Positions 19,382 through 20,620 of a stretch of DNA of 64,000 nt are shown piece by piece; the stretch's first letter is position 1; the number at the start of each line of letters is the position of its first letter. The position numbers and the translations under genes are program-made. Origin of the DNA: Escherichia phage vB_EcoM_D4. Location of the stretch: the sequence record PP886228, one strand, 5' to 3'. The notes under the pieces were generated by a model that did not search any database, was not told the DNA's origin, and was given only the letters and a program-made list of their open reading frames with translations.

Positions 19382-19822
19382 TTAGAAAGGTTTTCTACGT
19401 TGCTTATTAATGTTAGCTTTCATAGCAGCTAAATGGTTTTGCTGTTCAATCAGTCGTGAGCGTTCTTGATGGCTAAGTGCCATAGTGTTCACATTCTCAA
19501 TCGCTTGAGTGGCTTGCTTTAAAGCTCGACCAATCTTGCCAGACATTTTACGTTTTGCAATAGTTGCTTGATGCTTAGGTTCAACCACACGATAACCAAC
19601 ACCCATTGAAGCAACCAGATAAATCTTCTCTTCTTTAAGAAGCTTCTCAATAAACTTCTCAAGTCGGTTTAGACGTGTAAGCGCATAAGCCTTCATTTCA
19701 TCTTCGTACTTAACAATGTCACCTTGATAAGTTGGCTTCACAATACCTAAGAATGTGTCCATCTCAGAATGTGATACAGTGTCACCGTAACTAAACTTTG
19801 CTGCTAATGCTTTTGTATTCAT
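19382..19822 (-). CDS. hypothetical protein
   Basis: 146-aa ORF flanked on both sides by repeat modules. Confidence 0.4.
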   Translation of the reverse strand: MNTKALAAKFSYGDTVSHSEMDTFLGIVKPTYQGDIVKYEDEMKAYALTRLNRLEKFIEKLLKEEKIYLVASMGVGYRVVEPKHQATIAKRKMSGKIGRALKQATQAIENVNTMALSHQERSRLIEQQNHLAAMKANINKQRRKPF

Positions 19823-19824
19823 AA

Positions 19825-20427
19825 TTAAACGTTACCTTCTGAAATAACTTCTACAGAAAAACGACCAAAGCGTGGACGCCAATCACCTACACCACAAAGG
19901 TTGCCAGCATTTTCCAGAACCATCAGAAGTTCCTCTCTGGTGATTTGCTCTTCATCGAACATCAAACCGAACTCTACAGACCAGTCACGGAAGATTGGAC
20001 GGTAGCTCATAACTCGTGCTGTGCCAATCTTAACAGATTTAGCATAGATAAAGTCTGGATTCTTAGCAAGTTCTTGTGGGTTTGCTGGACAGTTCTTGAT
20101 AGTCATTGGGAAGACTACATCTGTCAGCATAATGGCTCGGTCAATTACCTTACCAAGTTTGTTGAGTTTCGCACCAGACTTGATGCAAGCCTCAATCATC
20201 TCACCGTTCATAACAAAACCCAGTTGCTCATCGTAGTAACAAGAAGTTACCAGTTGGCTTTCTGCTAAGAGCGCATAGTCTTCGTCAGTCTTTTTACGTT
20301 TACTGGACAGAGACTTGTGATATTTTGTCAGAGGGTTTAATGGGTCTGACAGCGTATCAGCGTGGCTCAGGAAAGGACGAGTACCAGTGATTTTGATATT
20401 TAACAGTTTCATAGCATTTAGCTCCAC
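19825..20427 (-). CDS. hypothetical protein
   Basis: 200-aa ORF. Confidence 0.4.
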
Positions 20428-20489
20428 ACTTTAGTTGATTGTTAAGTTGTTTGTAAAGAACCCTCAACAGAAGACTCTTTAGAAACTTG

Positions 20490-20620
20490 GTAGATTTTTA
20501 ACGTGGCTACTACCATCCACCCAGACTTTACCATACCTCACCAGACCATACCTCACCTGGCCGCGCCTTGCCTTGCCAAACATCACTTAAAAACCCTTTT
20601 AAAAGACTCTTAAGTGATGC
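20490..20620. repeat. fifth copy of the period-5 CC / hairpin module
   Basis: ggtagatttttaacgtggctactacc hairpin, CC every 5 bp 20531-20577, then catcacttaa...ttaagtgatg palindrome. Confidence 0.65.

Follow-up and report, generated by a model that had tools for sequence, protein, structure and literature searches.

Background

VIPR, for Viral Interference Programmable Repeat, was described in two 2026 preprints that are not yet peer-reviewed (bioRxiv 10.64898/2026.04.26.720920,.720927). According to the preprint text available to us, phage SUSP1 carries vipr, which encodes a minimal RAMP protein, and vap1, accompanied by four vrRNAs of ~100 nt, one upstream and three downstream. Each SUSP1 vrRNA has 9-16 YNNGG repeats and, 3' of them, a pseudoknot tail. 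The two variable bases (NN) of a repeat pair with target DNA, one target base in three being skipped, and the complex represses transcription. For SUSP1, the same text reports that the vrRNAs are expressed and form RNPs, that the skip rule holds in vitro as well as in vivo, and that silencing occurs. It also states that 18 of 20 SUSP1-clade guides with identifiable targets match a satellite phage in E. coli (bioRxiv 10.64898/2026.04.26.720920,.720927).

VIPR has parallels in Class 1 CRISPR-Cas (Cas7/Cas5/Cas6), with which, as far as the available preprint text goes, it shares the RAMP fold, a thumb that flips bases periodically, a filament on the guide RNA and an R-loop. That text gives the outcome of VIPR as silencing rather than cleavage, with no PAM and in a virus-carried system. 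The VIPR guide is also noncontiguous, two of every five RNA bases being read against two of every three DNA bases. Vibrio phage ICP1 uses a type I-F CRISPR-Cas system, with acquisition and DNA degradation, against the PLE satellite. The phage considered here resembles ICP1 in being lytic and in carrying an RNA-guided system with guides matched to a satellite that sits in the host chromosome and parasitises the phage. The two differ in that the locus here has a single small protein and repeat-coded guides, with silencing of transcription as the expected outcome.

Locus organisation

The window analysed is a 64-kb stretch (64,000 nucleotides) of Escherichia phage vB_EcoM_D4 (PP886228). The 2-kb region under study is 100% identical to Escherichia phage vB_EcoM_I14.1 (PP892526) and shares 90-97% identity with numerous Felixounavirus genomes from phages of E. 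coli, Salmonella and Shigella. The GenBank taxonomy line of record PP892526.1 reads Tequintavirus (Demerecviridae), whereas its relatives by sequence are Felixounavirus (Ounavirinae). The two-gene unit, which we identify below as vipr and vap1, lies between the DNA ligase gene and a 127-aa gene, in a series of genes for replication and nucleotide metabolism, every one of them on the minus strand.

A first-pass annotation of this DNA had noted two minus-strand open reading frames bracketed by copies of a period-5/palindrome module. Both reading frames are present in the ORF listing. The frame placed at 19825-20427 exists, but it starts at 20412 with ATG (195 aa) instead of at 20427 with GTG; this ATG has GGAG 8 nt before it, and the start agrees with the PDB sequence and the GenBank CDS. 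The modules on both sides of the gene pair are likewise real. We scanned the 64-kb window for any dinucleotide recurring every 5 nt and found five CC tracts (18836-18935, 18988-19047, 19120-19199, 19252-19336 and 20511-20595). Since the same scan returned no period-5 GG tract in the window, all five have one orientation, reading from the minus strand. One tract is upstream and four are downstream of the two-gene operon. The palindrome CACTTAA...TTAAGTG occurs three times in the window (18924, 19193 and 20584) where 0.02 copies are expected, and none of 100 shuffles contained three or more. A further tract of 6 units at 22536-22565 was taken as chance, being inside an ORF and without a tail.

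In minus-strand order, the upstream copy comprises a promoter, leader, hairpin, twelve YNNGG units, a 32-nt tail and a ribosome-binding site, followed by vipr. On the 3' side of vap1 stands a terminator-like hairpin, then four units of hairpin, YNNGG tract and tail, then a long terminal hairpin. Each module thus reads hairpin, (YNNGG)12-14 and a tail of ~32 nt. The features are as follows, all on the minus strand and in order of transcription.

20650..20677 (-): sigma-70-type promoter, TTGACA-16 nt-TATACT, 11/12 consensus matches, just past the DNA ligase stop codon
20581..20620 (-): leader hairpin immediately before vrRNA1 (5' side), formed by the catcacttaa...ttaagtgatg palindrome of the first-pass annotation, 18-bp stem, 3-nt loop, -15.7 kcal/mol, z -5.7
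20521..20580 (-): vrRNA1 guide tract, 12 YNNGG units, 11/12 perfect; NN: TT AA AA GC CA GA AT CT GA AT AA CT
20489..20520 (-): vrRNA1 3' tail, H-type pseudoknot GTGG/CCAC and GGTAG/CTACC, identical to the SUSP1 vrRNA1 tail
19825..20412 (-): vipr, 195 aa, matching PDB 36pp_D
19382..19822 (-): vap1, 146 aa, VIPR accessory protein, 145/146 identical to SUSP1 vap1
19355..19370 (-): terminator-like GC hairpin and T-run, past vap1
19322..19362 (-): variant hairpin region leading into vrRNA2, overlapping the terminator hairpin; weak fold as tested, z -0.8
19229..19321 (-): vrRNA2, 12-unit tract 19262-19321 and pseudoknot tail 19229-19261; NN: GA AC GC TA AA CT AG AG GA TT AA GC
19190..19228 (-): inter-guide hairpin of the same family as the 18921-18959 hairpin
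19098..19189 (-): vrRNA3, 12-unit tract 19130-19189 and tail 19098-19129; NN: AT AT AT GC GA CG GC CA CA GA TC GC
19053..19097 (-): inter-guide hairpin, second variant, -13.5 kcal/mol, z -4.6
18960..19052 (-): vrRNA4, degenerate tract 18993-19052 (8/12 perfect) and tail 18960-18992
18921..18959 (-): inter-guide hairpin, -21.6 kcal/mol, z -7.6
18819..18920 (-): vrRNA5, 14-unit tract 18851-18920 (all perfect) and pseudoknot tail 18819-18850 with stems AAGG/CCTT and GGCAG/CTGCC
18772..18818 (-): terminal long hairpin, then a T-run, z -3.25; the next gene's promoter is partly embedded

The promoter at 20650..20677 is, judging by its sequence, the likely start of a vrRNA1-vipr-vap1 transcript. No promoter was found inside the downstream array, and the terminator-like hairpin stands between vap1 and that array. 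These two features count against a simple account of how vrRNA2-5 would be transcribed.

GenBank lists a 34-aa "hypothetical protein", P3ECOSUBI14A_CDS0074, at window positions 20479-20583 (-), where it overlaps the vrRNA1 tract and tail. This is almost certainly a spurious CDS. Elsewhere in the window, positions 61661-61815 hold an exact tandem duplication of a 77-bp unit starting with a run of eight C, which could be a terminal-repeat or assembly junction. Near the window end, 63045-63995 is densely filled with short tandem repeats whose period is 10-12, AAAGTTACGTA and CTTAACAATTT among them.

The Vipr and vap1 proteins

The first-pass annotation had credited neither protein with a recognisable domain. 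This holds for Pfam, in which neither has a family, Cas families included, but not for the PDB, which contains a near-identical solved structure. In a PDB sequence search, the 195-aa protein was 191/195 identical (98%) to 36pp_D, "SUSP1 Vipr protein" (E 2e-128). Residues H17, K33, R39, E71, M72, K82, K88, R138, C173, D177, W178 and R179 are present, and with them every residue to which the preprint assigns a contact with GGY, with the skipped base or with the non-target strand. At position 175, for which the preprint text names T175, the protein here and the PDB sequence both have V. The 146-aa protein is 99% identical to SUSP1 vap1 and lies directly downstream of vipr, as in SUSP1. In PHROGs, both proteins fall only in function-unknown families.

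Homologues of vap1 are almost absent outside these phages. A single-sequence model of vap1 (pLDDT 68) has three helices, a beta-hairpin and two long helices; compared with PDB folds, it gave no significant match, and the weak top matches were winged-helix regulators. The preprints, in the text available, label vap1 "predicted DNA-binding" (bioRxiv 10.64898/2026.04.26.720920,.720927). The model and its weak winged-helix matches would be compatible with that label, without proving it.

More distant homologues of Vipr (24-43% identity) are encoded in IMG/VR contigs and by phages of Pseudomonas, Mycobacterium, Gordonia and Listonella. Those in IMG/VR are also flanked by same-strand period-5 GG tracts, some of which overlap in register.

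We are very confident that the locus is a type II VIPR system of the SUSP1 clade, likely silencing a satellite that parasitises the phage. Its likeness to SUSP1 covers the proteins (Vipr 98%, vap1 99% identical), the order of ligase, vrRNA1, vipr, vap1 and vrRNA array, the leader hairpin and tails (nearly identical in sequence), the YNNGG code and the target satellite family. The two differ in their NN repertoire, in having 1+4 vrRNAs here against 1+3 in SUSP1, and in the classification of the phages that carry them, the phage here being a Felixounavirus and SUSP1 a Suspvirus. Compared with Class 1 CRISPR-Cas, the locus is without CRISPR repeats or spacers and without cas1/cas2. We found no CRISPR array of identical direct repeats and unique spacers in the unit, which holds only two genes.

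Guide tracts, tails and hairpins

To place the five tracts in context, we scanned IMG/VR with Vipr and ligase, which yielded 29 ligase loci together with VIPR loci, of which 18 are close and six distant (37-40% identity). Period-5 GG tracts were found on the vipr strand only, including those beside the distant (37-40%) Vipr homologues. Among 59 unique tracts in related loci, the first G of the unit was G in 88% of cases, the second G in 99%, and Y was a pyrimidine in 98%. The two N positions (N4 and N5) are hypervariable, with an entropy of 1.9 bits. The five tracts here conform to this pattern, with 12-14 YNNGG units each, on the same strand as vipr and on either side of it. The vrRNA2 tract recurs in four IMG/VR phage loci; the other four are absent from the other 20 close loci sampled.

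The tails were aligned as two terminal tail types together with a satellite-borne tail, all fitting one H-type pseudoknot. In this small alignment of 6 sequences, 96% of cells were paired and 4 pairs showed compensatory changes. By eye, the internal tails have the same topology with unrelated stem sequences. A search of Rfam at a permissive threshold gave chance-level matches only.

An 18-bp hairpin lies directly 5' of the YNNGG tract in four of the five modules, the hairpin of vrRNA2 being a weaker variant. Hairpins of the leader type have an 18-bp stem, a 3-nt loop and folding energies of -15.7 to -21.6 kcal/mol (z -5.7 to -7.6), and the second variant at 19053-19097 has different basal pairs. 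As we read the fold, the inner stem of the leader hairpin contains four G.U pairs, so that the hairpin would form only in minus-strand RNA. Mature vrRNAs are ~100 nt long according to the available preprint text (bioRxiv 10.64898/2026.04.26.720920,.720927). As this is the length of tract plus tail, the hairpin is probably removed. It may therefore be a maturation signal, for example for host RNase III. In the preprint text available to us, neither vrRNA maturation nor an 18-bp hairpin is discussed.

Repeats of this kind in a leader could in principle be read by a protein without serving as guides. TRAP, for instance, recognises (G/U)AG triplets with spacers of 2-3 nt in the trp leader of Bacillus: an oligomeric protein on a 5' leader RNA whose triplet recurs at intervals of about 5 nt, much as would occur here. 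We considered such an attenuation or protein-titration leader, along with an opposite-strand Rho rut site and an R-loop or G-quadruplex (two-tetrad) replication origin. The position of a tract between the promoter and the first gene, the C-rich and G-poor plus strand, and the adjoining ligase and polymerase genes are all compatible with readings of this type. Yet Rfam offered no match, the proteins are unrelated to TRAP, and TRAP's spacer bases are not used to recognise another nucleic acid. None of these readings predicts that the variable dinucleotides would carry target information under a code with a 1-nt skip, and the neighbouring protein is a known binder of exactly such repeats. The four candidates were dropped once the PDB match and the preprints explained the pattern, and we regard the chance that any of them is correct as practically negligible. 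The tracts are best read as vrRNA guides, and their dinucleotides can be compared with possible targets.

Predicted targets in a chromosomal satellite

The satellite's baseplate gene is 72% identical to that of SUSP1 in the available preprint text (bioRxiv 10.64898/2026.04.26.720920,.720927). We used the satellite baseplate gene to locate the satellite; among 5426 complete E. coli genomes, 474 contain this marker. Satellite-bearing strains include E. coli PAR, GN4751 and JNEC-KY173. Where its loci were fetched, the satellite is an island of ~10-11 kb with genes for a tape-measure protein, a baseplate protein and a large serine recombinase. It occupies three or more chromosomal sites, among them between yciI and tonB, between lafU and dinB, and inside a DUF72 gene. 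The islands were delimited in five loci.

L006, 5753-17297: satellite island
L048, 397-11757: satellite island
L049, 2462-13283: satellite island
L050, ~2169-13297: satellite island
L051, ~1841-13299: satellite island

Some satellites have a second small recombinase gene besides that for the large serine recombinase. One identical satellite recombinase is encoded in a Citrobacter genome (L047), which was the single Citrobacter locus found when the recombinase was scanned against one genome per species.

Targets were scored by the published rule, in which guide NN pairs with target NNx. The five guides were compared with 268 kb from 15 satellite-bearing loci, allowing 0-3 skipped bases, a scope in which the best targets may be missed. 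With a skip of 1, vrRNA1 reached 22/24 in the satellite recombinase gene, vrRNA3 reached 22/24 in the satellite recombinase ORF, and vrRNA5 reached 23/28 on the antisense strand of a satellite recombinase gene, NN matches of 82-92% among the three. With 0, 2 or 3 skipped bases, the best scores of these guides were 16-20. Permuting the order of units 200 times gave maxima of 19-21, and 0/200 permutations attained the observed scores of vrRNA1, vrRNA3 or vrRNA5. The best target of vrRNA2, at 20/24 (83%) in a satellite intergenic region, equalled the permutation maximum. The predicted sites are L051 12452-12486, L034 3273-3307, L050 12180-12220 and L048 7561-7595. For vrRNA4, only background scores were obtained among the 15 loci (268 kb).

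The sites of vrRNA1 and vrRNA3 are on the recombinase coding strand, where NN falls on codon positions 1-2. For vrRNA5 the site is on the other strand, and its skipped bases fall on third codon positions. For all three guides, then, the skipped bases coincide with codon wobble positions.

Exact-pattern scans of IMG/VR gave a single match for the first 11 units of vrRNA3 in 2.9 million contigs, which was the satellite; the vrRNA4 and vrRNA2 guides had no match in such scans. No comparable self-target exists in the window, where the best skip-1 scores were 16-18 of 24-28. A blastn search of the vrRNA array against the 5426 E. coli genomes found nothing.

The skip rule was reproduced with guides from other phages. 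Among the 59 guides of vipr-positive phages, 25 had an NN match of at least 85% with a skip of 1, and none did with a skip of 0, 2 or 3. This is an independent replication of the 1-nt-skip rule on different phages.

Two satellites carry a vrRNA of their own with 13-14 units and no vipr (L031, 2677-2741 (-); L051, 3054-3123 (-)), in agreement with the preprint. These satellite-borne vrRNAs have a tail-A-like pseudoknot and a terminator. The guide in L031 matches another satellite (L050, 2649-2686) at 23/26. Apparently, the satellites' own vrRNAs must use Vipr supplied in trans.

vrRNA4 has the most degenerate tract and is the only guide without a predicted target; it may be a decaying guide. 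Extending this to the whole locus would make it a non-functional VIPR remnant, and many relatives do indeed have no vipr at all. Against decay of the system as a whole, neither ORF is disrupted, and their products share 98-99% identity with SUSP1 proteins shown by experiment to be active. In addition, 11/12 to 14/14 units are perfect in four of the tracts, and three guides have strong predicted targets. We consider a remnant extremely improbable in this phage and an intact type II VIPR system the better description.

Relatives lacking vipr

Comparing related genomes for presence or absence of the flanked pair, with the repeats as breakpoints, had been proposed in the first-pass annotation as the way to check whether the pair is a mobile cassette or an insulated unit. 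The comparison came out positive. The DNA ligase gene occurs in 259 phage records, and 230 records contain the full-length 107-nt segment made up of promoter, leader and hairpin. With tblastn, Vipr was found in just 117 relatives and in a further 15 distant phages, which infect other hosts. Hence 113 of the 230 related records keep the vrRNA promoter and leader and encode no Vipr. Classified by the first word of the organism name, 76/114 leader-bearing Escherichia records also have Vipr, as do 17/75 from Salmonella.

NJ12, BPS17W1 and several IMG/VR contigs, all vipr-less, have the promoter and leader hairpin followed without interruption by one or two tracts and the final tail. Missing from these loci are the first tail type, vipr, vap1 and the terminator. 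The junction is inside the repeat modules, the absent stretch running from within one module to within another. The vipr-less loci lie in the region past the ligase gene, and most of those inspected retain one or two guide tracts.

L052, 3214-3500: vipr-less locus
L053, 3081-3500: vipr-less locus
L055, L058, L063 and L079-L082: further vipr-less loci

Some of the orphan tracts look intact and others (e.g., L082) are visibly degenerate; 2 of 10 still match satellites at 85% or better. When loci are clustered by ligase sequence, those with and without vipr are interspersed. In 111 of the 117 records, vipr-vap1 DNA is 95-99% identical, compared with mostly 90-95% for ligase. The text of the preprints available to us has no mention of vipr-less arrays in phages.

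The dispensability of the pair, junctions within the modules, interspersed distribution across ligase clusters and high identity of vipr-vap1 DNA all speak for a mobile or insulated gene cassette, in which the repeats would be recombination or insulator elements and the proteins would have an unrelated accessory function. In this form the proposal appears highly improbable to us. The repeats occur on one strand only, with GGY conserved and NN hypervariable, and encode matches to satellites; the neighbouring protein is the solved vrRNA-binding protein; and no recombinase or transposase gene is between or beside the modules. Recombination between direct repeats, with loss of the pair, accounts for the polymorphism, and no dedicated mobility function is needed. 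The suggestion of a mobile cassette was therefore right that the pair is dispensable and bounded by repeats, but these are guide RNA genes and neither transposon ends nor attachment sites. They are also not insulators, being guide RNA genes used by the encoded protein. Of the functions suggested for the proteins, accessory fits, whereas host interaction in the usual sense gives way to RNA-guided silencing of a competing mobile element. Homing-endonuclease genes occur a few kb away in relatives, near the DNA polymerase gene.

With the locus taken as a VIPR system, we infer that the simplest reading of its patchy distribution is repeated loss, and possibly regain, by recombination between directly repeated guide modules. 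One could go further and propose that orphan guides are not debris, and that they act in trans with Vipr from a co-infecting vipr-positive phage or soak up a competitor's Vipr, the vipr-vap1 cassette being repeatedly lost and regained. We find this extension conceivable but rather doubtful.

Proposed working and implications

By analogy with SUSP1, the type II VIPR system of this phage would work as follows. Transcription from the sigma-70-type promoter past the ligase gene would probably produce an RNA with vrRNA1, vipr and vap1, and four further vrRNAs would come from the array after vap1. Each predicted vrRNA comprises 12-14 YNNGG units and a pseudoknot tail. Vipr, of the RAMP family, would polymerise on the vrRNA with one protomer per unit, hiding GGY and presenting the two variable bases. 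The filament would then read double-stranded DNA as NNx NNx..., skipping one base in three, and the resulting gapped R-loop would block transcription. The likely role is to silence the satellite that parasitises the phage, mainly through its large serine recombinase gene (vrRNA1, vrRNA3 and vrRNA5).

The protein identities, guide anatomy, tail covariation, predicted targets and absence of self-targets were obtained in this analysis, and the mechanism given in the preprints agrees with every feature that was put to a test. Near identity to SUSP1 suggests the same working in this phage, and silencing of the recombinase would presumably hinder the satellite. As the system was already known, this case is of confirmatory value, with small additions in the orphan arrays and the hairpin before the guides.

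A VIPR system can be recognised from raw sequence by its period-5 signature alone. The published code lets the guides of any such phage be decoded and so predicts what that phage fights. Here, the predicted opponent is mainly the integrase-type recombinase of an E. coli satellite. The existence of relatives that keep guide genes without Vipr bears on the loss, exchange or use in trans of VIPR systems.
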